DNA of 64,000 nucleotides. Source: a phage. The position numbers were made by a program, and so were the translations under genes. The stretch lies in sequence record PZ357121.2; one strand, 5' to 3'. The number at the start of each line of letters is the position of its first letter. The stretch's first letter is position 1. The notes below the pieces were generated by a model. That model was not told where the DNA came from and searched no databases. It saw only the letters and a program-made list of their open reading frames with translations. This document shows, piece after piece, positions 14,799 to 63,130 of the stretch.

Positions 14799-14827
14799 AT
14801 AGTATCATAGGCCATAGTTGTTGTACA
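14799..14827 (-). promoter_or_regulatory. T4-type early promoter (-35 TGTACA, 17 nt, -10 TACTAT)
   Basis: Minus strand motif followed by AGACCTATCAAAAC leader. Confidence 0.55.
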
Positions 14828-15352
14828 TCATTTTAGCAAAATAAAATCAACTTGTTCTGCCAATGAACGTCTAAACATTAATTGACAACTTCCGAGGATG
14901 AAATCAGGTGCTTCATAGACCGCGATGTAGTATCCTTTAGCTTTCAAAAGTTCAACATCCACCTGGTCATCAAACCATGCATAAACCGCGTCAACACTTT
15001 CAAATCCAAAATAGAACCCTTGGGCCCAATCTTCACTCAATTCAAATGTGTGCTCAATTCTATAGTATCTTAAGATATTTTGTTCAAGGAGTTTGTCTTC
15101 ATTTACTGTAGGACGATTAGGGACATTATAGTTGTCACCGTGATGGTAGAAGTTACCTGAGATTATTCCATGTTTATCAAGGAACTCCCATGTTTCTTCA
15201 GAGTTGTCGGTGCCCGACCAACCGTATGGCGAACGAGGTTCTTTATTCCAAGAGGTTTCCCAAATTCTGACGGCTTTACCATCTTCGATAGCAATTCCTG
15301 GTAATGATTCACGTTGAGTACAAAAACTACGTTCTACGCGGTAAACTAACAT
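14828..15352 (-). CDS. hypothetical protein (174 aa)
   Basis: ATG at 15352 (MLVYRVE...) with GAGGAG SD; track N-terminal extension overlaps promoter. Confidence 0.55.
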   Translation of the reverse strand: MLVYRVERSFCTQRESLPGIAIEDGKAVRIWETSWNKEPRSPYGWSGTDNSEETWEFLDKHGIISGNFYHHGDNYNVPNRPTVNEDKLLEQNILRYYRIEHTFELSEDWAQGFYFGFESVDAVYAWFDDQVDVELLKAKGYYIAVYEAPDFILGSCQLMFRRSLAEQVDFILLK

Positions 15353-15378
15353 ATTATTCTCCTCTGGTTGATATGGGT

Positions 15379-15407
15379 ATAATATCAAAACCAGAGGAGA
15401 AGTAAAC
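15379..15407 (-). promoter_or_regulatory. T4-type early promoter (-35 GTTTAC, 17 nt, -10 TATTAT) with 9-bp inverted repeat
   Basis: CCTCTGGTT/AACCAGAGG inverted repeat brackets the -10; downstream arm contains the SD. Confidence 0.55.
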
Positions 15408-15411
15408 AACT

Positions 15412-15831
15412 TTATGCGAAAGCAGCTGGGGTATATTTTTTAATTTGGAATTCAGGAACTACCATGAACTGACCAGCGAAAACGATGTTATAAAGCTTAA
15501 CACCATCTTCTACCCAACGGTCGCTGATAAATCCGGCGATTTGCTTAGTTTTCCACGGTGTTCCATCAGTTGCCGCAGCAATAGTGAATTCATGGTCTTT
15601 TTCAACAGAAACTGATCTGCATAGTCCCCATTTGAACGCTTTTTCTTCTGGTTCAATGAACTGGCTTGAGACGTAGCCAATATTACCATTAGCATCACGA
15701 ACTTTAACTTGGTTACGACCAAAAACCGGATCACTCACAGAAATAACTTCAACCAACTTCCCGGCAACTTTAGAGCGAGAAGCAACAGATACATATACGT
15801 AATCACCTGTAGAGAGATTTACAATATTCAT
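15412..15831 (-). CDS. hypothetical protein (139 aa), paralog of adjacent gene
   Basis: ATG ORF; shares SxASRSK.AGxLVEV, FKWxLC and GFISDxWVEDGxKLYNIVF motifs with 15841-16338. Confidence 0.65.
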   Translation of the reverse strand: MNIVNLSTGDYVYVSVASRSKVAGKLVEVISVSDPVFGRNQVKVRDANGNIGYVSSQFIEPEEKAFKWGLCRSVSVEKDHEFTIAAATDGTPWKTKQIAGFISDRWVEDGVKLYNIVFAGQFMVVPEFQIKKYTPAAFA

Positions 15832-15840
15832 AATAATTCC

Positions 15841-16338
15841 TTAAGCTTTATGAGGAGACACATAGCGAGTGATTTCAGATTCTTTAACAACTCGGAAGTC
15901 ACCTAAGAATACGATATTGTATAACTTTTCACCATCTTCAACCCATTGGTCACTAATGAAGCCACACATAGTATCAGTTTTGCTTGGATAACCGTATTCG
16001 TCGATGTAATCAAATTCTTTATCGGTTATAAATTCAACGCCTTTGCAAAGAGCCCATTTGAACTGTGTAGTAGGCTCAACGATATCGCTTGAAGCAAAGT
16101 GTGCAGGTGCAACTTCTTCGCTTGAAGCAAATTGGACTCGTATATGTTTTTCCAGGAATTTAGGACTTACGTAAGCATACTGGGCATCTTGTCCGCCAAA
16201 ACTGGGCATGATTCGAACTTTAACTTCTTTAATACGTCCCATGCCATTTGTGCGAAGTCCGACAACTTCAACCAGACGACCTGCGGCTTTAGACCGGGAT
16301 GCAGTTGATACACGCTTAATTTCACCAATAGTAATCAT
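15841..16338 (-). CDS. hypothetical protein (165 aa), paralog of adjacent gene
   Basis: ATG ORF; tandem paralog of 15412-15831. Confidence 0.65.
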   Translation of the reverse strand: MITIGEIKRVSTASRSKAAGRLVEVVGLRTNGMGRIKEVKVRIMPSFGGQDAQYAYVSPKFLEKHIRVQFASSEEVAPAHFASSDIVEPTTQFKWALCKGVEFITDKEFDYIDEYGYPSKTDTMCGFISDQWVEDGEKLYNIVFLGDFRVVKESEITRYVSPHKA

Positions 16339-21862: not shown

Positions 21863-21892
21863 ATCTTAACACAGTTTTTAGTGGTTGTAAAC
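21863..21892 (-). promoter_or_regulatory. T4-type early promoter (-35 GTTTAC, 18 nt, -10 TAAGAT)
   Basis: Minus strand motif. Confidence 0.45.
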
Positions 21893-21910: not shown

Positions 21911-21932
21911 AAGGAATCCCGAAGGATTCCTT
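21911..21932. terminator. strong bidirectional rho-independent terminator downstream of soc
   Basis: AAGGAATCC-CGAA-GGATTCCTT hairpin flanked by A10 on one side and T-rich on the other. Confidence 0.7.
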
Positions 21933-26737: not shown

Positions 26738-26929
26738 TTATCCTCTGAAATCAGCTTCGAAAACTTTCTCGTCATTAACAAATGCTTTAACTAATGCGTT
26801 GTTCACTTCAGCAAGTTGTACCGCAACCCACTCGATTTCTTCACGGTCGCCTGATAACATGATATCTTTAGTGAACGTATTATCATTTTTAAACCAGCCA
26901 ATAAAAGTAACTTTAGTTAATTTGCTCAT
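26738..26929 (-). CDS. hypothetical protein (63 aa)
   Basis: ATG overlapping upstream stop (ATGA); track ORF extends to 26950. Confidence 0.45.
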   Translation of the reverse strand: MSKLTKVTFIGWFKNDNTFTKDIMLSGDREEIEWVAVQLAEVNNALVKAFVNDEKVFEADFRG

Positions 26930-27243
26930 ATTTCCTCGCAAAATGCCCATTCAGCGTGATAAACTGTAGCACCTTTAGTATTATTCATTTGAACTACATC
27001 TACCGGAGAAATTACTCGATAGAGACGTGGTTCACCTCCATAAGAGCGTGCTGCTCGTCCTGCATAAATCTTTGCTAAACCGATATCTTCGGTAAAGAAT
27101 ACACGATCCAAGTTTTTCTTACGTCCTGTTTCAGACAGAACTCCTGTTTCTTCAGGAGGACAAAGCATGTTTTCGATGTTAGCTGAACTACTTGAACCGT
27201 GATAAAAAATCTTAAATTCTGCTTTACAATCGATGGTTTTCAT
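26926..27243 (-). CDS. hypothetical protein (105 aa)
   Basis: ATG ORF with GGAG SD. Confidence 0.55.
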   Translation of the reverse strand: MKTIDCKAEFKIFYHGSSSSANIENMLCPPEETGVLSETGRKKNLDRVFFTEDIGLAKIYAGRAARSYGGEPRLYRVISPVDVVQMNNTKGATVYHAEWAFCEEI

Positions 27244-27269
27244 TTTGTTCTCCAGTAGTTGATAGGTCT

Positions 27270-27298
27270 ATAATAACACAACTACTGGAGAAGTAAAC
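27270..27298 (-). promoter_or_regulatory. T4-type early promoter (-35 GTTTAC, 17 nt, -10 TATTAT) inside a 12-bp perfect inverted repeat
   Basis: CTCCAGTAGTTG / CAACTACTGGAG brackets the -10; downstream arm includes the GGAG SD. Confidence 0.6.
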
Positions 27299-27673
27299 TT
27301 AAAAACGTAATTTAGATATATCTGCGTTGATTTCGTTTTGGTTTGCGTCGTATGCAATTAAACGAACCGCTTTAGATGGGTCATTCAATGCATAGAAATG
27401 ATGGAACATTGCTCGAACGATATCACCATTTACGAGTTCTACCTGGACAGGAGAACCTTTTTCGAGTTGGAAATGTTCATAAGCTTTGATGGTTCGCAGA
27501 TAATCAAGTTTTTGATTTCCGGCTCCAACAATTTGTACGATACGTTTGCCCATGTTTTCCATACGAGATACAATAGTTTTAGGAGCAAGAATAACGTAGG
27601 TTGCCAGCGGAGAAACTACTTCAACAGTTGTGTTTTCGGTGATTGCAGTAAAAATTGCTTGAGACATATTCAT
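27299..27673 (-). CDS. hypothetical protein (124 aa)
   Basis: ATG ORF. Confidence 0.6.
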   Translation of the reverse strand: MNMSQAIFTAITENTTVEVVSPLATYVILAPKTIVSRMENMGKRIVQIVGAGNQKLDYLRTIKAYEHFQLEKGSPVQVELVNGDIVRAMFHHFYALNDPSKAVRLIAYDANQNEINADISKLRF

Positions 27674-27702
27674 AATGTTTTCCTCTTGGTTTGTGTAAGT
27701 AC

Positions 27703-27732
27703 ATCATATCATGCCTAGAGGAAGATGTAAAC
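27703..27732 (-). promoter_or_regulatory. T4-type early promoter (-35 GTTTAC, 18 nt, -10 TATGAT)
   Basis: Minus strand motif immediately after the gene 41 terminator hairpin. Confidence 0.5.
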
Positions 27733-27739
27733 CCCGAAA

Positions 27740-27756
27740 GGAGACCGAAGGTCTCC
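27740..27756 (-). terminator. terminator-like hairpin downstream of gene 41
   Basis: GGAGAC-CGAAG-GTCTCC hairpin; T-rich on both sides. Confidence 0.5.
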
Positions 27757-27762
27757 TTTTTA

Positions 27763-43330: not shown

Positions 43331-43522
43331 TTATTCGTAGAAGTCGGTAACTGTCCATGCGGAATTGCGATTAGACATTATTTTATTATACTCATCTTTA
43401 AAAGCAGATTTGAGCATTTGTTCAGTAACAATATGTTCTTCACCTGAAAACGTATTGGTCAAAACATATTTTTTAATTTCAGGGACAACGAGAAGATGTT
43501 GTCCGGTTGAATACTCCGCCAT
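43331..43522 (-). CDS. hypothetical protein (63 aa; 45.2-like position)
   Basis: ATG ORF. Confidence 0.5.
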   Translation of the reverse strand: MAEYSTGQHLLVVPEIKKYVLTNTFSGEEHIVTEQMLKSAFKDEYNKIMSNRNSAWTVTDFYE

Positions 43523-43546
43523 TATAAATCTCCGTGTTTAAAGCAA

Positions 43547-43554
43547 TATAAATA
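43547..43554 (+). promoter_or_regulatory. T4 late promoter TATAAATA on + strand upstream of HNH endonuclease
   Basis: Exact TATAAATA about 45 nt upstream of the + strand ATG at 43600. Confidence 0.5.
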
Positions 43555-43599
43555 GGTTTATCAATTTATCTGTTGCTGTATCAAATAAGGATTTAGTAA

Positions 43600-44316
43600 A
43601 TGAATTATAACTCAATATACGAAAAGCTTATCACCAATGCTAAATCAAGAAGTTTAGATGGTTATACAGAACGTCATCACATTATACCACAATGTTTAGG
43701 TGGAAGTGATGATGCTTTAAACTTAGTAGACTTAACACCAGAAGAACATTATTTGGCACATCAACTGTTGGTAAAAATCCATCCAGATAATGCCTCTTTA
43801 ATATATGCTGCTCGTATGATGACTATCTCATCTCCTAAAGCAGATAGAAGCAAAAACAAATTATTTGGATGGCTTCGACGTAAGAATCAAGAAGTTCAAA
43901 AGAACAAAGAATTCACTGCTGAAACCCGTAAGAAAATGTCCGAGTCTGCAAAAAATAAACCAAAGATTACATGTCCACACTGCGGTTTAACCGGCACTGA
44001 AGGAAACATGAGACGTTGGCATTTTGATAACTGTAAACAGGGCCCTACGCCTAAAATAGTAAAACTTGATCAAGAAACAAAGGATAAAATAATTAAAACC
44101 ATGGCCACGAAAATTTGGAAAGAAGATTCTTGCCCGTTTTGTGGCTTAACTACTAAGTTATCGGCGTTAAAGCCGCATATAAAATTCTGTAAATCAAATC
44201 CTAACAGAAAGAAAAAAGAGGACAAGAAAATTAAATGTCCTCATTGCGATAAAATAGGGATCCCTGCTAATATGCATCGTTGGCATTTTGATAACTGTAA
44301 ACATAAGCCTCATTAA
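43600..44316 (+). CDS. free-standing HNH homing endonuclease with three C-terminal zinc-knuckle repeats (238 aa)
   Basis: ATG ORF on + strand with AAGGA SD; HNH core ERHHIIPQCLGGSDDALNLVDLTPEEHYLAH; three copies of CP(H/F)CG...(NM(R/H)RWHFDNCK). Confidence 0.8.
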   Translation: MNYNSIYEKLITNAKSRSLDGYTERHHIIPQCLGGSDDALNLVDLTPEEHYLAHQLLVKIHPDNASLIYAARMMTISSPKADRSKNKLFGWLRRKNQEVQKNKEFTAETRKKMSESAKNKPKITCPHCGLTGTEGNMRRWHFDNCKQGPTPKIVKLDQETKDKIIKTMATKIWKEDSCPFCGLTTKLSALKPHIKFCKSNPNRKKKEDKKIKCPHCDKIGIPANMHRWHFDNCKHKPH

Positions 44317-46001
44317 GAGGCTTTCATTACAGTAAATCGTCCAACTTTGCTCATTTGCAAATGTTGTCCATAAGCTTGTGGGTCATGGTCTCTGTGGCTA
44401 ATTATAAACACGTTTGCATCGGTTAGAGAGTTAAGAATTGTTGAAATAGCTTTAATACCTTCAGAATCAGTCGCGGAATCCATGACTTCGTCCATAATTA
44501 ATGTATTGATTCTAACACCAGAAACCTTTTCAGCAATATCTCGCCATGTAAACAACAGTGCGATATCGATACGTGCCTTTTCACCTTGACTAAATGAAGC
44601 ATAACTAAAGTCTTCACGACCACGTGATTTTATAGATTCATTGAATTCTTCGTCAATAGAAAACACGTAATCAGCTTCCATGATTTTAAGATAATGGTTA
44701 ATCTGCTTATTAAACAGAGGCACATATTTTTTAATGATAGCACCTTTAATACCAGAATCTTTTAACATATCTGTGATAATACCACGATGGTATTTTTCAA
44801 GAACGATATCCGATTTTGTTTTAATGATTTTATCAAGTTCTTTTTGAAGCAAAGCTATCTCATCGGCATGGTCGATAAATTCTGCTGAGGCTTGCTCTAT
44901 TGCAGCTTTAACTTTCTTAGCTTTATCAATAGTGGCAATCATTGCTTGTTTCTTGGTACGAATATCAGATGCAAGGTCCTGCTTAGTCTTAACATTAGCT
45001 CTATATTCATCAACTAGGACACTCAGATTATCTCTGTGACAGGTAAGTTGCTCGAATGAGTGATTACATTCATGAAGCTTATCGGTAATCTTAGAGACAA
45101 TAGGGTCACCCTGGTGCAACTGTGATGCACAAGTAGGACATGTCCCGCCATCATGATACATCTTAATAACTTTGTTGTATGAGTCAATTTTAGATTTAAT
45201 CAAGAATGCTTCTTGTCCTATCTTGTTGAATGCCTCAGTAGGGTCTTCATCAAGAACGATATTAAGTAGACGCTCATTAGCTTCTTCGATTTCTGCTTTT
45301 AATGAACGAGCTTCTTTGGCTAGGTCGTCATACATATTCTGTAGACGCGCTACATTATCGCCAGATAATTTCTTTTGACGTTCGATATTCTCGTTATAAA
45401 TCTTAATTTGTTGGATAATACCATCTTTCTTGGCATCAAGAACTTGTCCCTGAGAATTAAGTTCTCGAACTTGAGACTTATTGATTTTATCCATTTCAGC
45501 GAGTGTGCCGACTTCTAAAAGGTCTTCGACAAGTTTTCTACGAGCAGGGGTGCTAAGAGCCATGAAAGGGGTATACCCTGCCGTCCCAAGCACAACGATC
45601 TGTTTAAAAGACGCGTATGACATTCCGATGCTACGTTCAAATTCTTCTTGGAAGTCACGACTGCTGGCAGATTCATCAAGACGAACACCGTCAACGGAGA
45701 TTTCGAAAATATTGGGCTTTTGGCCACGTTTAATGAAGTATTTTTTATCATCGAATTCCATCCAAAGCTCAACTAAGAGCTCTTTCTTGTTCGTGCTATT
45801 AATGATTTGTCCTTTCTTAACATCACGAAATGGTTTACCGAAAAGTCCGAAAGTAATGGCTTCTAACATCGTAGATTTACCACCGCCATTTTTACCAGTG
45901 ATTAATGTCTTTTGGACTTTATCTAATTGGATATCAATAGGATTCCCACCTACCGACATGATGTTTTGATAACGAACACGATTTAATTTAAATGATTTCA
46001 T
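44313..46001 (-). CDS. 46: recombination nuclease subunit gp46 (Rad50/SbcC-like, 562 aa)
   Basis: ATG ORF; Walker A GKNGGGKST; central coiled coil; C-terminal signature/Walker B region. Confidence 0.95.
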   Translation of the reverse strand: MKSFKLNRVRYQNIMSVGGNPIDIQLDKVQKTLITGKNGGGKSTMLEAITFGLFGKPFRDVKKGQIINSTNKKELLVELWMEFDDKKYFIKRGQKPNIFEISVDGVRLDESASSRDFQEEFERSIGMSYASFKQIVVLGTAGYTPFMALSTPARRKLVEDLLEVGTLAEMDKINKSQVRELNSQGQVLDAKKDGIIQQIKIYNENIERQKKLSGDNVARLQNMYDDLAKEARSLKAEIEEANERLLNIVLDEDPTEAFNKIGQEAFLIKSKIDSYNKVIKMYHDGGTCPTCASQLHQGDPIVSKITDKLHECNHSFEQLTCHRDNLSVLVDEYRANVKTKQDLASDIRTKKQAMIATIDKAKKVKAAIEQASAEFIDHADEIALLQKELDKIIKTKSDIVLEKYHRGIITDMLKDSGIKGAIIKKYVPLFNKQINHYLKIMEADYVFSIDEEFNESIKSRGREDFSYASFSQGEKARIDIALLFTWRDIAEKVSGVRINTLIMDEVMDSATDSEGIKAISTILNSLTDANVFIISHRDHDPQAYGQHLQMSKVGRFTVMKAS

Positions 46002-48498: not shown

Positions 48499-49045
48499 CC
48501 TCATATAAAAAATCCAAACTAGGCGAATCGCTAACAACTTCCTTCTTTTCAGCCCCAGGAGCTTTATAAGCGGATTCTTCATAATGCGTCATTTTATCGT
48601 AGATGTCTTGAATAAACGTTTCATCTACCAACGCTACCATATCATCGTCATGACTGTCGTAGACATTATGAACGAAGTAACTATATTTCTTTGCAACTTC
48701 CTTACGTTCTTTTTTGATACGTTGGACAAAAGCATTAAAACAAGCTCGAGTTATGTATGCATGTGGGTTATTGTACTTAGTTTCGTCGAAATTATGAAGT
48801 CCCTTAATAGAGGCTTCAATCCCATCTGCAATCATCTCCTGCTTCCAAGACTGGGTATATCCTGAAAAGTTGAAACGTTTGGACAGGCCTTCGGCGATAA
48901 GCATAATTGCTAAACCGATGGTATCATTCTGACGAATAATTTTGTTTGGGTCTTTATTATTTAAGAGCTCCTTTTTCCACTCGATTATAGCGGCGAGAAG
49001 CTCTTTATTATTCACATAGTTATTTTTAGGTTTTTGTTCAGTCAT
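48488..49045 (-). CDS. 55: late sigma factor gp55 (185 aa)
   Basis: ATG at 49045 with AAGAGGT SD; ...[10 protein letters not shown]...[52 protein letters not shown]... matches recalled T4 gp55; 185 aa. Confidence 0.9.
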
Positions 49046-49117
49046 AAGTACCTCTTGGCTCAATTCATAGGTCTATTATATCATAATATTTAGAGACCTA
49101 TCTTAAAGCACGAGATA

Positions 49118-49387
49118 CTATCGGAGCAAACAATAAGCCTGAAACACTTTTTCCATTAAACGTTTGAACTCATGGATATCGATATAAAGCTCAGTAAGAC
49201 CGGCATTATAAAGAAAATCTAAAAAGTTCTCATGTGTTTCGTTATAGTCGCCTTCGTTTAATTGAGATACATGAGTTTCCCAAAAACCAACACCTTTAAC
49301 AAATGGAAAATACGTAACTTTCATAAAGTTGTCGACGTAAAATTCACCCAGCTTTTCTTCAGTTATACTGATTCGAGTTAATTTCAT
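49118..49387 (-). CDS. hypothetical protein (89 aa)
   Basis: ATG ORF. Confidence 0.55.
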   Translation of the reverse strand: MKLTRISITEEKLGEFYVDNFMKVTYFPFVKGVGFWETHVSQLNEGDYNETHENFLDFLYNAGLTELYIDIHEFKRLMEKVFQAYCLLR

Positions 49388-50246: not shown

Positions 50247-50277
50247 GATATTTTCCTCATTTTAAGACGATAGGAAG

Positions 50278-54225: not shown

Positions 54226-55270
54226 CATTATATTCAGCATGAGTCGCAAATTCATGCCCGTTTATATGAAACAACAAAATTTGGATAGTCCATAGATATG
54301 CAACGTTCTTTTATAGTGCTAGGATGAAAATTTAGCGCTTTAGCTGCTTCTATATAAGACGTATACTTAATACCGTCAACAACCACATATTCAGGAACTT
54401 TATGAATAGTAGTCTTAATACTCAAAACAAGAGGATGAGTTTCGACTTCACTTTCAGTGCAATTTAAATATTCCGCTGCTTTTTTAAAACTTCTAAAAGT
54501 TTTATTTTTAAGCTTTATCGATACTTGTTTTTTACTTTTTCGACTATTGATATTATTTTGCACATGTTCCTTAGATCTTCCGTTTTTAGCATAATATTCA
54601 GCTACAGAAGATTTTATATTGTTTTTATGAGATTCGGATAACACTTTACCCTTATGAGCATCTCTTAATTTTTGAATATGTTCTTCAGTATCCGGATGCT
54701 TATAAAACTTTTTACCGCCTATGGATTTATTTAAACATTTTTTGCTATAAAAATATTTACGTATGACCTCTTCTTCATGTTTTAATGCATCTTTATAACT
54801 ATCAAATGTTTTTAAAATTATCCATTTAGTAGGTGTATCAGTTTTTAAGCGTTCATTTATATACTTAGATGACGTTGTGTAAGTTTTCCAGTTTGTGGGC
54901 TTGTTTTTAATTGTTCTAAATTTTTTATAACCGATATAAATGTCACCATTAGAAAACTTAACTAAGTATGTAAATGCGTCTTTATCTTTTATTTTAGTAC
55001 AACGTCTTTTTATCCATTTCATTGTTTCACCTCGTATTCATAAGATAATCTTATTTATACAAGATGACTGCTGCATGTCGCCATGCAGATTAGACTATAT
55101 CTTCATCTTTCGATGCCGGCCGTTTCGAATAGCATTAGCTTCTATTCTACACCGCTACATTCATCACGGTTAGTCGTTAGGCATTTAGTTCAAAAGAACA
55201 TTTAGCACGGGATTGTCTACTAGAGAGGTTCCCCGTTTAGACCGGTTTTACATGAGCCTGAATTAAATTA
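54226..55270 (-). mobile_element. group I self-splicing intron (nrdD/sunY-type) carrying a homing endonuclease ORF
   Basis: Interrupts nrdD reading frame; 5' intron sequence ...TAAACGGGGAACCTCTCTAGTAGACAATCCCGTGCTAAA... matches recalled T4 sunY intron core; exon 1 ends in U, intron ends in G. Confidence 0.8.
54252..55022 (-). CDS. GIY-YIG homing endonuclease, I-TevII-like (256 aa), intron-encoded
   Basis: ATG ORF inside the intron; N-terminal GDIYIGY...KF GIY-YIG motif; basic C-terminal DNA-binding region. Confidence 0.8.
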   Translation of the reverse strand: MKWIKRRCTKIKDKDAFTYLVKFSNGDIYIGYKKFRTIKNKPTNWKTYTTSSKYINERLKTDTPTKWIILKTFDSYKDALKHEEEVIRKYFYSKKCLNKSIGGKKFYKHPDTEEHIQKLRDAHKGKVLSESHKNNIKSSVAEYYAKNGRSKEHVQNNINSRKSKKQVSIKLKNKTFRSFKKAAEYLNCTESEVETHPLVLSIKTTIHKVPEYVVVDGIKYTSYIEAAKALNFHPSTIKERCISMDYPNFVVSYKRA

Positions 55271-55808
55271 ACTCATACGCCTGGAATGCATCGTATACGT
55301 CTTTTTCTGTTTTAGATTGGGCATAATTCAACGCATCAGCGATTTGCCATTTTTCTGCATCCTCAATATGTTTTGCATAGGTGCGTTTAACATAAGGAGA
55401 AAGAACTTTATCGACATTCGCAAATGTAGTTCCACCATACTGATGCGAAGCAACTTGTGCAGTAATTTGTGCCATAATTGCAGTAGCAACACCAATAGAT
55501 TTAGGCGTTTCAATTTGAGCATTGCCGAGCTTAAATCCGTTTTCAAGCATTCCTTTTAAATCTACTAAACAGCAATTAGTAAAAGGCAATGATATACTGT
55601 AATCTAAATCATGAAAATGAATTAATCCAACATTATGGGCATTTACAATATGACTTGGAAGAATACGACAAGCGATATGTTTAGAAACAATACCGGCCAT
55701 TAAATCTCTTTTTGTTGGAAAGACGCGAGAATCTTTGTTGGCGTTTTCTGTATTTAATTCTTTATCTTTATTTGAAATAAAATTTAAAACATCTTTTTCT
55801 AAAGACAT
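55271..55808 (-). CDS. nrdD: anaerobic ribonucleotide reductase NrdD, exon 1
   Basis: ATG ORF; MSLEKDVLNF...NENANKDSRVFPTKRDLMAGIVSKHIA...CCLVDLKGMLENGFKLGNAQIETPKSIGVATAIMAQI... matches recalled T4 NrdD N-terminus; frame ends in intron stop. Confidence 0.85.
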
Positions 55809-56620
55809 AATTCTAATTTATCCTTTTGAAATTCTTCGTCTAAATATGGGTTCCAACCCATTTTAAACCTTTTGATGAAATTATCAATTCTAAATTTCGG
55901 TAAGTTTAAATCCGCAAAAATAGATGATTTACTTTTAAAATCTGGACTTAAATAATCATATAAAATTTCTGCGTATTTTAACCATAATATACAAGTACCA
56001 GATTTAATTGCTCTCGGAGTTTTCCAAGGTTTTACACCATACATCGGATTTCCACTTCCTTTATGCCTGATAGAAGATGAAATTCCAATTTTAATTTTAG
56101 CTTCCTTTGTATGCGAAAATCCACGATGTGGATTTTCTTTCCAGTATTTTTTAGAAGCTTCTGATATTTTCTTTCTGGCTAAATTAGTATGATGCTTTCC
56201 ATAAAATCCATGATTTTTGCCTTTATTACGATTTCTTTTAATCATGGTTATTGATTGCTTTTCTCTAGTTTCTTTAGAAGGAGAAATACCATATGTCGTA
56301 AATTGGCCATCAGCATATGCTAAATTAAAATACTCTTTATTCCATACATCTTTTTCTATATTCTTTTGAAATTCAGCTTCAATGCTAGTTATTTGTTCAT
56401 CTCCGACTAATTGAAAATATAATATCTCAACTTTCGGCGTTTCTTTCAATAAGGCTTTTTGAAATTCGGAAGATGACGAAGACGAATAATAAAATTTACC
56501 ATTTTTATCAATAATATTCGTTCCGTCAAAAGTGCAATTGGTTTTACTTCCAATGTAATAATATGGCGGGGTTTTAGCATTAATTCTACTAATAAACGAT
56601 AGTTTATATACTACATTCAT
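55799..56620 (-). CDS. free-standing GIY-YIG homing endonuclease, Seg-like (273 aa)
   Basis: ATG ORF; N-terminal YYYIGSKT...(GIY-YIG-type) and repeated basic helix (NUMOD-like) segments; inserted between 49 and nrdD. Confidence 0.7.
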   Translation of the reverse strand: MNVVYKLSFISRINAKTPPYYYIGSKTNCTFDGTNIIDKNGKFYYSSSSSSEFQKALLKETPKVEILYFQLVGDEQITSIEAEFQKNIEKDVWNKEYFNLAYADGQFTTYGISPSKETREKQSITMIKRNRNKGKNHGFYGKHHTNLARKKISEASKKYWKENPHRGFSHTKEAKIKIGISSSIRHKGSGNPMYGVKPWKTPRAIKSGTCILWLKYAEILYDYLSPDFKSKSSIFADLNLPKFRIDNFIKRFKMGWNPYLDEEFQKDKLELCL

Positions 56621-61465: not shown

Positions 61466-61494
61466 ATTATACTCCAACCATCCTTGGTTGTACA
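61466..61494 (-). promoter_or_regulatory. early promoter (-35 TGTACA, 17 nt, -10 TATAAT) with CCAAGGATGG spacer motif
   Basis: Minus strand TGTACAACCAAGGATGGTTGGAGTATAAT. Confidence 0.55.
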
Positions 61495-62552: not shown

Positions 62553-63080
62553 TTATGCGTGAACCGTCTTTAAACGTTCTTCAAATTTCCGAAGAGTACT
62601 AATACGTTCTGCTTTCTGTTTTGTATAGTTTGCAATACGTTCTGAAGTGAGAGCGTATCGTTCGTTTACTGTTTCTTTCATGAAGTCAGGGATTTCACGA
62701 GAAGCTTTAATTTCATCAAACTTATCGAGTACTGCCTGGTCTTCAGCGATTAAATTTTCGTACATCTCGATATCTTTCTTGATAAACTCGATATCTTCCT
62801 GGGTTACTTTGGATAAACGAGATGCTTTATCCTTTTTGTACTGCTCGTTAGTTTCACGAGACCAGAATAATGTACGTTTTTTGTTAGTGTTTTTGTAGAC
62901 TTCCACAATTCCAACTGAATCGATGATAGCAATCCAATTCCAGCGAGATTTGAAAATCTGACCTCCGTCCACGGTAATCTCGTTACCATAAGCAACGTCA
63001 TTAAAGAACTTGCTTTGTGCTTCAGATTTAAATTTACCGTCGTTATAATTTACCAGGTTGAAAATATCTTTAGCGTTCAT
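62553..63080 (-). CDS. hypothetical protein (175 aa)
   Basis: ATG ORF; leader identical to that of 26926-27243. Confidence 0.6.
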   Translation of the reverse strand: MNAKDIFNLVNYNDGKFKSEAQSKFFNDVAYGNEITVDGGQIFKSRWNWIAIIDSVGIVEVYKNTNKKRTLFWSRETNEQYKKDKASRLSKVTQEDIEFIKKDIEMYENLIAEDQAVLDKFDEIKASREIPDFMKETVNERYALTSERIANYTKQKAERISTLRKFEERLKTVHA

Positions 63081-63101
63081 GTTTTACCTCCAGTAGTTGA
63101 T

Positions 63102-63130
63102 AGGTCTATAATAACATAACCATAGACCTT
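63102..63130 (-). promoter_or_regulatory. T4-type early promoter (-35 GTTTAC, 17 nt, -10 TATTAT)
   Basis: Minus strand motif then AGACCTATCAACTACTGGAG leader. Confidence 0.6.

Follow-up and report, generated by a model that had tools for sequence, protein, structure and literature searches.

Early promoters within Shine-Dalgarno-containing hairpins at two loci of a T4-type phage

Can an early promoter be placed so that the gene behind it is translated only from RNA that starts at that very promoter? The question is raised by a stretch of phage DNA of 64 kb (sequence record PZ357121.2; "the window" refers to all of it), in which a minus-strand early promoter, P27298, lies within a long inverted repeat whose downstream arm contains the Shine-Dalgarno (SD) sequence of the gene that follows. 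We find it probable, judging from predicted RNA folding, that P27298 and a second promoter, P15407, are each an early promoter set within an SD-hiding hairpin, with the gene translated from own-promoter RNA only. The broader proposal of an earlier note on this DNA, that such hairpins tie translation to promoter use throughout the promoter family, is partly supported, in that the arrangement appears real at two of the ~25 promoters of the window, a subset and not the family.

Two early promoters with the ribosome-binding site in a hairpin arm

P27298 begins with a -35 box, GTTTAC (27293-27298; promoter features here and below are on the minus strand), which is abutted by the stop codon TAA (27299-27301) of an upstream open reading frame (ORF) of 124 amino acids. 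The first, anti-SD arm of the repeat, TTCTCCAGTAGTTG (27279-27292), occupies the promoter spacer, upstream of the predicted +1. Both the -10 box, TATTAT (27270-27275), which is preceded by TGn, and the predicted +1 (27263, the A of CCTATC, 7 nt after the -10 box) lie in the hairpin loop, and the second arm, CAACTACTGGAGAA (27248-27261), holds the SD, GGAG (27250-27253). The two arms match perfectly over 14 bp, or over 19 nt at 89%, and no other non-palindromic inverted repeat of the window is as long. The gene under this promoter, an ORF of 105 amino acids (26926-27243, minus strand), ends on the start of dmd (ATGA, 26926-26929); it is conserved in 610 T4-like phage records and absent from T4, where dmd directly follows gene 41. 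It has no match in Pfam. In some Acinetobacter and Vibrio phage records the ORF is labelled a putative ADP-ribosyl transferase, and we also note that a shorter start is annotated in the relative AlbertHofmann, the SD-preceded ATG at 27243 being used in other records.

P15407 is built in the same way and stands between a motB-like gene (15412-15831) and the gene that it controls, a homologue of motB.2 (174 amino acids, 14828-15352, minus strand). Its -35 box, GTTTAC (15402-15407), is followed in the spacer by the anti-SD arm TTCTCCTCTGGTT (15389-15401), the -10 box TATTAT (15379-15384) and the predicted +1, an A at 15372, are in the loop, and the second arm, AACCAGAGGAGAA (15357-15369), which holds the SD AGGAG (15359-15363), pairs perfectly with the first over 13 bp. 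Perfect stems of at least 11 bp occur only three times in the 64 kb, and all three fall in promoter zones, which make up 2.6% of the sequence (0.08 expected); the inverted repeats at early promoters are not there by chance.

The two RNA forms expected at these promoters fold very differently. Read-through RNA is predicted to fold with -25 kcal/mol at P27298 (z = -4.27) and -26 kcal/mol at P15407 (z = -4.56), and in neither case was any of 200 shuffles as stable, whereas the local transcripts fold with -1.0 and -0.9 kcal/mol, their leaders being no more structured than shuffles. At P27298 the probability that the SD is unpaired is 0.74 for RNA started locally and 0.00 for read-through RNA, and at P15407 it is 0.48 and 0.00, a contrast that exceeds 24 of 24 promoter-swap controls, in which the upstream halves were exchanged between promoters. 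Folding of read-through against promoter-proximal RNA, which the earlier note had suggested as a check, thus came out at both promoters as that note had expected, with the SD hidden in the one form and open in the other. The hairpins resemble intrinsic terminators in being intergenic stem-loops; they are unlike them in their loops of 17-19 nt and in having no U-tract, the stems being followed by AACAAAAUG and UAAUAUG. The terminator scan flagged neither of the two, and we rejected the terminator reading for them.

We propose that RNA arriving from an upstream promoter, which would hold both arms, buries the SD in a helix of about -25 kcal/mol, and that RNA begun at the local promoter, without arm 1, would have an open, unstructured leader and be translated. 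Since the SD would be locked in the helix, the gene would not be translated from the read-through message; with that message silent and the local RNA open, translation would take place only while the gene's own early promoter fires. The hairpin would then act as a translational insulator that limits expression to the early burst and shields it from later read-through; T4 denV, for example, would be insulated in this way from late ipII transcripts that run into the gene. The start sites in this scheme are predicted positions, and the effect on translation is proposed from the repeats and their placement, which is not random, from the contrast in folding and from the conservation described below.

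The promoters themselves are of a familiar kind. The window is 98% identical to the Mosigvirus phages S143_2, JS09 and F2, RB69-type relatives of T4, and its gene order, taken from the annotated relative AlbertHofmann, is motA, rIIB/rIIA, topoisomerase, goF, dexA, dda, modA, soc, primase, sp, imm, dmd, 41, uvsX, 42, 43, 45, 46/47 and 55, up to the nrd region, all on the minus strand; in T4-type genomes this is classically the region of the early and middle genes. In a pattern search of the window, GTTTAC-N17-18-TAnnnT has 21 matches on the minus strand and none on the plus strand, and its TGTACA variant has 6 and one, which bears out the earlier note's count of more than 20 minus-strand promoters of this form (27 minus against 1 plus). 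A rescan with a two-block weight matrix gave 27 minus-strand and no plus-strand sites at a score of at least 12; because the matrix was trained on the same pattern matches, the strand contrast is the informative part of this result. An SD and a start codon follow within 95 nt in 25 of the 29 pattern matches, and the promoters stand 5' of early ORFs in the same orientation, those of motA, rIIB, dexA, modA, imm, sp, dmd and others. They are the already known T4-type sigma-70 early promoters, which in T4 are strong and combine an A/T-rich upstream element with a -35 box, TGn and a -10 box (PMC2988021), and of which 57 have been predicted in RB69 (Nolan et al., 2006; PMC1524935). The window promoters agree with these in consensus, in strand, in their place before early ORFs and in their C-rich positions -3 to -1, and the promoter itself shows no difference.

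A position-specific start-site motif, CCTATC(A)A, is conserved among them, with an A at the seventh nucleotide after the -10 box in 23 of 29 promoters; CCTATC as such is present in 8 of the 29, and TATC in 15 against 2.1 expected. With the usual spacing of sigma-70 promoters, transcription starts about 7 nt after the -10 box, and from this spacing and the motif we infer the A of CCTATC as the +1. The longer leader that the earlier note had called conserved, (A/C)CCTATCAAC, is found exactly at two sites and with at most one mismatch at 9 against 6 expected, which is not significant; as a window-wide motif it is not enriched, and the shorter CCTATC(A)A takes its place.

The position of these hairpins directly behind the upstream gene bears on another explanation, namely that the SD of read-through RNA is opened only by the ribosome that finishes the upstream ORF, which would make this a case of translational coupling. 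In every SD-type case the upstream stop codon does lie 0-4 nt before the -35 box and 6-12 nt before arm 1. By our estimate from the mapped distances and the known ribosome footprint, however, a ribosome that terminates there would get no further than the first 0-4 pairs of a 13-16 bp stem, leaving most of the SD paired, and we regard coupling as highly improbable.

Conservation of the pairing in relatives and in T4

At both promoters the pairing appears to be kept by compensatory changes in relatives. For motB.2 the comparison was drawn from the phage collection, the viral-contig collection having given only three near-identical loci. Among six Mosigvirus-type variants of the motB.2 promoter, substitutions fall in the loop and the flanks, and none of the six has a stem position unpaired; in the stem of phage ECCR664 both sides of a G-C pair have changed to give A-U, and a substitution of G for A produces a U.G pair in the sense RNA. 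JS98, which belongs to a different genus, has a perfect stem of 11 bp with ATG/CAT at its inner end where the window has TGGTT/AACCA, and the T4 motB.2 promoter has yet another version of the hairpin (-24.3 kcal/mol). A formal count over five distinct sequences found 96.9% of cells paired and two pairs changed on both sides, and over the same five the covariation score was matched by 3 of 500 shuffles, with slid controls near zero.

Four relatives with differing loops have the P27298 stem unchanged, and a Gaprivervirus phage retains it with one G.U pair and one mismatch. More distant T-even relatives, in several genera, have an anti-SD of 5-6 bp (TCTCC/GGAGA) at the same position in the spacer, the rest of which is variable, and two lineages use alternative anti-SD/SD pairs (ATCTCC/GGAGAT in L011/L013 and TCCTC/GAGGA in L018). 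Among other genes, the stems of L105 and L107 are 16 bp long and differ in one compensatory pair.

The SD-occluding design recurs at orthologous and paralogous promoters of T4 and of other genera, in T4 at regB, denV, motB.2, alc, ndd.4 and nrdC.8. At regB an SD-occluding early-promoter hairpin is found in three lineages (L124 and L131-L136) whose inner stems are different yet complementary: TTTTCCTCTTGACTG/CAGTTAAGAGGAGAA in the T4 type, TTCTCCTCTAGTTG/CAACTAGAGGAGAA in the Mosigvirus type and TCTCCTGTAAGT/ACTTACAGGAGA in a third lineage. This comparison was made by eye only, because the MAFFT alignment was out of register between lineages. In T4 itself (L124, T4T 62728-62790) the regB hairpin over the SD is 15 bp long and includes two G.U pairs. 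At denV, T4 and one relative (L120) share a 10-bp hairpin that pairs with the SD, and two others (L121 and L122) pair the same SD with a non-homologous arm 1 located between the -10 box and the +1. Both forms place arm 1 upstream of the predicted start, and they amount to a convergent solution; in the literature on T4 denV transcripts and hairpins we found nothing beyond RegB resistance.

RegB, a nuclease that cuts GGAG in SDs, its own included, suggests a further explanation, in which the hairpin shields the GGAG of long polycistronic RNA so that the message of dmd and other genes stays intact and short transcripts are cut. Within the window the strong site GGAGRAYARAA is matched perfectly by one sequence only, GGAGAACAAAA at P27298 (27243-27253), and the start region of P15407 is one mismatch away from that site; RNA structure is known to block RegB (PMC3014915, PMC1702504), and the promoter of regB itself has such a hairpin in the three lineages. 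The window has, however, no excess of the consensus (12 matches, with 10.8 expected), and T4 denV has the hairpin, yet its resistance to RegB was traced experimentally to sequence 3' of the GGAG and not to structure (PMC1702504). Shielding is also compatible with SD occlusion and no true alternative to it; as the explanation of the hairpins we consider it quite improbable. At P27298, short transcripts may be translated and then cut by RegB while long ones are shielded by the hairpin, and we note this as a lead only, because of the attribution of denV resistance to sequence.

Two natural deletions bear on whether the repeats act in RNA at all. Relative to window positions 14827-15407, PNJ-9 (L060) lacks motB.2 and has a chimeric P15407/P14827 promoter, and relative to 27298-27732, LF82-8 (L066) lacks the 124-amino-acid ORF and is left with a chimeric promoter. 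Whole-ORF losses of this kind between adjacent promoters are the signature of recombination mediated by PeSL (promoter-early stem-loop) cassettes. Such a cassette has been described as a strong early promoter with a stem-loop and an SD/ATG in the gap between small ORFs (Arbiol et al., 2010; Comeau et al., 2014; PMC2839356, PMC4122927); the stem-loop lies between or over the -35 and -10 boxes, and close relatives differ by insertions and deletions with which the cassettes are associated. The repeats might exist only at the level of DNA, either as recombination substrates for cassette shuffling or as products of templated quasi-palindrome mutation in intergenic DNA free of constraint, with no function in RNA. 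Besides the deletions, the perfect Watson-Crick pairing of several stems and the common skeleton of paralogous cassettes, TTCTCC-NNN-AGTTG / CAACT-NNN-GGAGAA, would fit such an origin. Set against this are the arms, which always avoid the -35 and -10 hexamers and always end on the SD, and the loops of 17-19 nt, which make cruciforms unlikely. Moreover, five T4 helices (motB.2, regB, nrdC.8, ndd.4 and alc) rely on two or three G.U pairs, their sense strand folding 7-10 kcal/mol better than the antisense, and ECCR664 adds its U.G pair; helices that contain G.U and favour the sense strand are unlike cruciforms or the outcome of templated palindrome-making mutation. We consider a purely DNA-level origin very improbable, and a function of the SD-type hairpins at the level of RNA likely.

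Hairpin classes and the reach of the design

Folding of each promoter region, together with mapping of the arm coordinates, sorts the promoter hairpins of the window into classes. In the SD-type class, arm 1 lies in the spacer right after the -35 box, the -10 box and the +1 are in the loop, and the SD is within arm 2; its members are 27298 (14 bp) and 15407 (13 bp), with weak forms of 5-7 bp at 27732, 20411 and 51434. In the promoter-internal class the spacer pairs with the -10/+1 region and both arms are at or upstream of the +1; here belong 50306 (12 bp), 63136, 6190, 5678, 25780, 5416, 50006 and 50732. Hairpins confined to the spacer, with the motif CCAAGGAYGGWTGG, occur at 61494, 60502 and 16399, and about 10 of the window promoters have no hairpin. 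A hairpin of at least 7 Watson-Crick pairs between the end of the -35 box and +5 is present at ~14 of 25. The promoters 61494, 60502 and 16399 also have a nearly identical spacer, CCAAGGAYGGWTGGAGTATAAT, in common, and look like paralogous cassettes.

The earlier note had placed the SD in the downstream arm at six sites. This holds at two of them, its sites 27252 (P27298) and 15361 (P15407), and fails at the remaining four, 50271, 5382, 49972 and 63098, all of the promoter-internal class, where arm 2 ends at the predicted +1 and the SD lies beyond it. At P50306 (50267-50300), ACGATAGGAAGA pairs perfectly with TCTTCCTATCGT over 12 bp, arm 2 stops at the predicted +1, and the SD (50254-50258), 9 nt on, is free. 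At P63136, the promoter of the nrdC.8 homologue (63102-63129), AGGTCTAT pairs with ATAGACCT and the SD (63087-63091) is free, 11 nt beyond arm 2. At P5416 (5381-5404), TGAGAGCA pairs with TGCTCTCA around the -10 box, with the SD 25 nt downstream, and at its paralogue P50006 (49972-49993), the hairpin of which differs by a compensatory change, GAGAGA pairs with TCTCTC and the SD is 20 nt downstream. As both arms of a promoter-internal hairpin lie upstream of the +1, it cannot gate the ribosome-binding site, and such hairpins most likely act on read-through RNA in another way; attenuation, 3'-end protection and recombination are among the candidate explanations.

Of the weak SD-type cases, P27732 (27680-27723) pairs TTCCTCT (27717-27723) with AGAGGAA (27680-27686), 7 bp over the SD, and this hairpin is not predicted to dominate folding (SD unpaired probability, 0.46). 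Just upstream of the -35 boxes of P27732 and of the promoter at 21892 there are G+C-rich hairpins at 27737-27759 and 21911-21932 (minus strand). The second of these has a T-run after it and was flagged as terminator-like in the terminator scan; the first is followed by TTTCGGG and came up solely in the search for perfect stems, with 10 bp. The two agree with the order, terminator first and then promoter, that is known from the PeSLs of T4 and PST.

How far SD occlusion extends was assessed with a thermodynamic test, in which expectations come from shuffled spacers; it replaced a finder of perfect stems that allowed at most one G.U pair and under-detected helices such as that of T4 regB. Of 22 window promoters, 3 have an SD that is no more than 5% accessible in read-through RNA (2.8 expected), and at a limit of 2% the figures are 3 and 1.3. 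T4 gave 9 of 31 promoters against 2.7 expected at the 5% limit, and all unique promoters together 34 of 200 against 25.5. About half of the window promoters have no SD occlusion of any kind. Stems as such are in excess among 164 unique promoters: those of at least 9 bp, counted for the SD-hairpin reading, are present in 2.4% against 0.1-0.3% in the nulls; promoter-internal stems of at least 8 Watson-Crick pairs in 12% against ~1% in both nulls; and hairpins of at least 7 Watson-Crick pairs between the end of the -35 box and +5 in 19.5% against 3%. With promoter-internal hairpins common and SD occlusion not general, the general phenomenon is that early promoters carry a stem-loop, and this is the published PeSL cassette.

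Several observations weigh against SD occlusion as the purpose of these hairpins, beginning with its reach. The median SD accessibility is the same in the real and the spacer-shuffled sets, and within the window start regions linked to a promoter do not differ in SD accessibility from those without one (Mann-Whitney p = 0.45). The position of the +1 is predicted from spacing and the CCTATC motif, a ribosome halted on the stop codon of the upstream ORF, which at P27298 precedes arm 1 by 6 nt, could open the first 3-4 pairs, and perfect repeats could arise by templated (quasi-palindrome) mutation. The comparison of sense and antisense folding gave p = 0.10 overall (Wilcoxon) and is biased, as the cases were chosen on sense folding; G.U and A.C are equally frequent at single mismatches (4 and 4), a count contaminated by spurious helices. 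In the relatives L010, L014/15 and LF82-8, P27298 has no arm 1 and is instead preceded by a terminator hairpin. Orthologous promoters also change hairpin class, that of nrdC.8 being promoter-internal here (63136) and SD-occluding in T4. Such class switching and the loss of arm 1 indicate that these promoters can do without SD occlusion, and what counts may be a function that the hairpin classes all share.

The hairpins might instead be PeSL-type attenuators, terminators or 3'-end stabilisers that stop or trim RNA from upstream through an effect on transcription or on RNA decay, with the SD in arm 2 of the two promoters incidental. The position of the published PeSL stem-loops between or over the -35 and -10 boxes, and one RB49 stem-loop that cut reporter expression as much as a strong terminator (PMC2839356), fit this explanation, as do the dominance of hairpins wholly upstream of the +1 in the survey, the interconversion of classes at orthologous promoters, and the long anti-SD arm where no terminator precedes the promoter, this arm being short or absent where one does. 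It accounts poorly for the two SD-containing stems, with their long loops, missing U-tracts and silence in the terminator scan, and for the base of the stem, which is exactly anti-SD/SD in every SD-type case. The latter, together with the two positions of arm 1 that pair with one SD at denV, points to the SD as the target, and we consider it unlikely that the SD is in arm 2 incidentally.

SD occlusion tied to promoter use, the T4-style coupling that the earlier note had put forward, is the best-supported reading at P27298 and P15407, where folding and conservation favour it, and falls as a rule for the family. Promoter swaps, the comparison of promoter-linked with promoter-less starts and the spacer shuffles all spoke against a family-wide device, which we rejected, the window having 3 occluded promoters of 22 against a shuffled expectation of 1.3-2.8. 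A wider claim for the T-even phages, that about a quarter of T4 early promoters (including those of regB, denV, motB.2, alc, ndd.4 and nrdC.8) carry an anti-SD in the spacer as a translational insulator and leave the gene blind to read-through, is one we advance tentatively and on balance doubt.

Some other sites of the window deserve mention. Rfam has no match anywhere in the 64 kb. A SegE-like homing-endonuclease gene of the GIY-YIG/NUMOD1 type (256 amino acids, minus strand, start 55022, region 54252-55100) lies on an insertion of ~1 kb (54232-55273) relative to AlbertHofmann. Upstream of it is the hairpin TCATCTTGTATAAATAAGATTATCTTATGAATACGAGGTGA, with the T4 late-promoter motif TATAAATA in its 5' arm and loop and the SD in its 3' arm, which makes it the classical late-promoter version of the SD-hiding device. 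Upstream of gene 55, which encodes the late sigma factor (49045-49120, minus strand), folding predicts that GTATCTC pairs with GAGGTAC and leaves no position of the gene's SD free; this helix surrounds an inner hairpin of ATAGGTCT with AGACCTAT, which in turn encloses a -10-like GATATAAT. The regions 43517-44324, 55583-56616 and 16066-16332 have no megablast match in AlbertHofmann and are likely insertions or replaced ORFs.

Relation to known devices and implications

The closest known system is that of T4 e, soc, 49, I-TevI/II/III and segB and of Aeh1 mobE, in which the SD, the AUG or both lie in the 3' arm of a hairpin and promoter transcripts are without the 5' arm, so that translation is confined to the short transcripts and the long ones stay silent (PMC3014915, PMC2988022). 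P27298 and P15407 match it in having the SD within the 3' arm of a stable helix, which sites 50271, 5382, 49972 and 63098 do not, and with the predicted +1 at 27263 and 15372 in the loop, their local transcripts are predicted to be without the 5' arm. However, the documented cases use late and sometimes middle promoters and delay expression, whereas the promoters described here are early sigma-70 promoters with arm 1 in their own -35/-10 spacer, and their effect is predicted to be the opposite one, expression in the early burst only. No case with an early promoter is given in the reviews covered, and one of them, on T4 homing endonucleases, lists no early promoters among the endonuclease-specific ones (PMC2988022). 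P27298 and P15407 would be an early-promoter variant of the e/soc/49/I-TevI device.

The PeSL cassettes, for their part, are fitted by the majority of hairpins in the window and by the deletions in PNJ-9 and LF82-8. In the available text of the two papers the stems are read as terminators or attenuators and recombination sites, those of T4 and PST lie upstream of the promoter, and Mosigvirus is outside the set considered; the words 'translation', 'ribosome' and 'RBS' are absent from that of the 2010 paper, and the SD as a stem arm was found in that of neither. The promoters, the promoter stem-loops as PeSLs, and hairpins with internal promoters that hide the ribosome site of late genes are thus already known. 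A version at early promoters in which the anti-SD sits in the spacer of the promoter itself, conserved at regB, denV and motB.2, was not found in the literature covered, which did not include the main T4 genome review, where an earlier mention is possible.

If the proposal is correct, the protein output of some early genes of T4-like phages would track their own promoter alone and would be turned off when early promoters shut down, although later transcripts cross the gene. This would help to explain how dense early genes with few terminators escape cumulative over-expression. Promoter-gene cassettes would be portable and, when shuffled across phages, would behave predictably, which would provide a functional rationale for modular shuffling by PeSLs as well as for protein synthesis that is strictly immediate-early. 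The prediction can be tested in the model phage T4 at regB, denV and motB.2, and engineered phages might borrow the arrangement as a compact, portable module for expression that does not depend on context.

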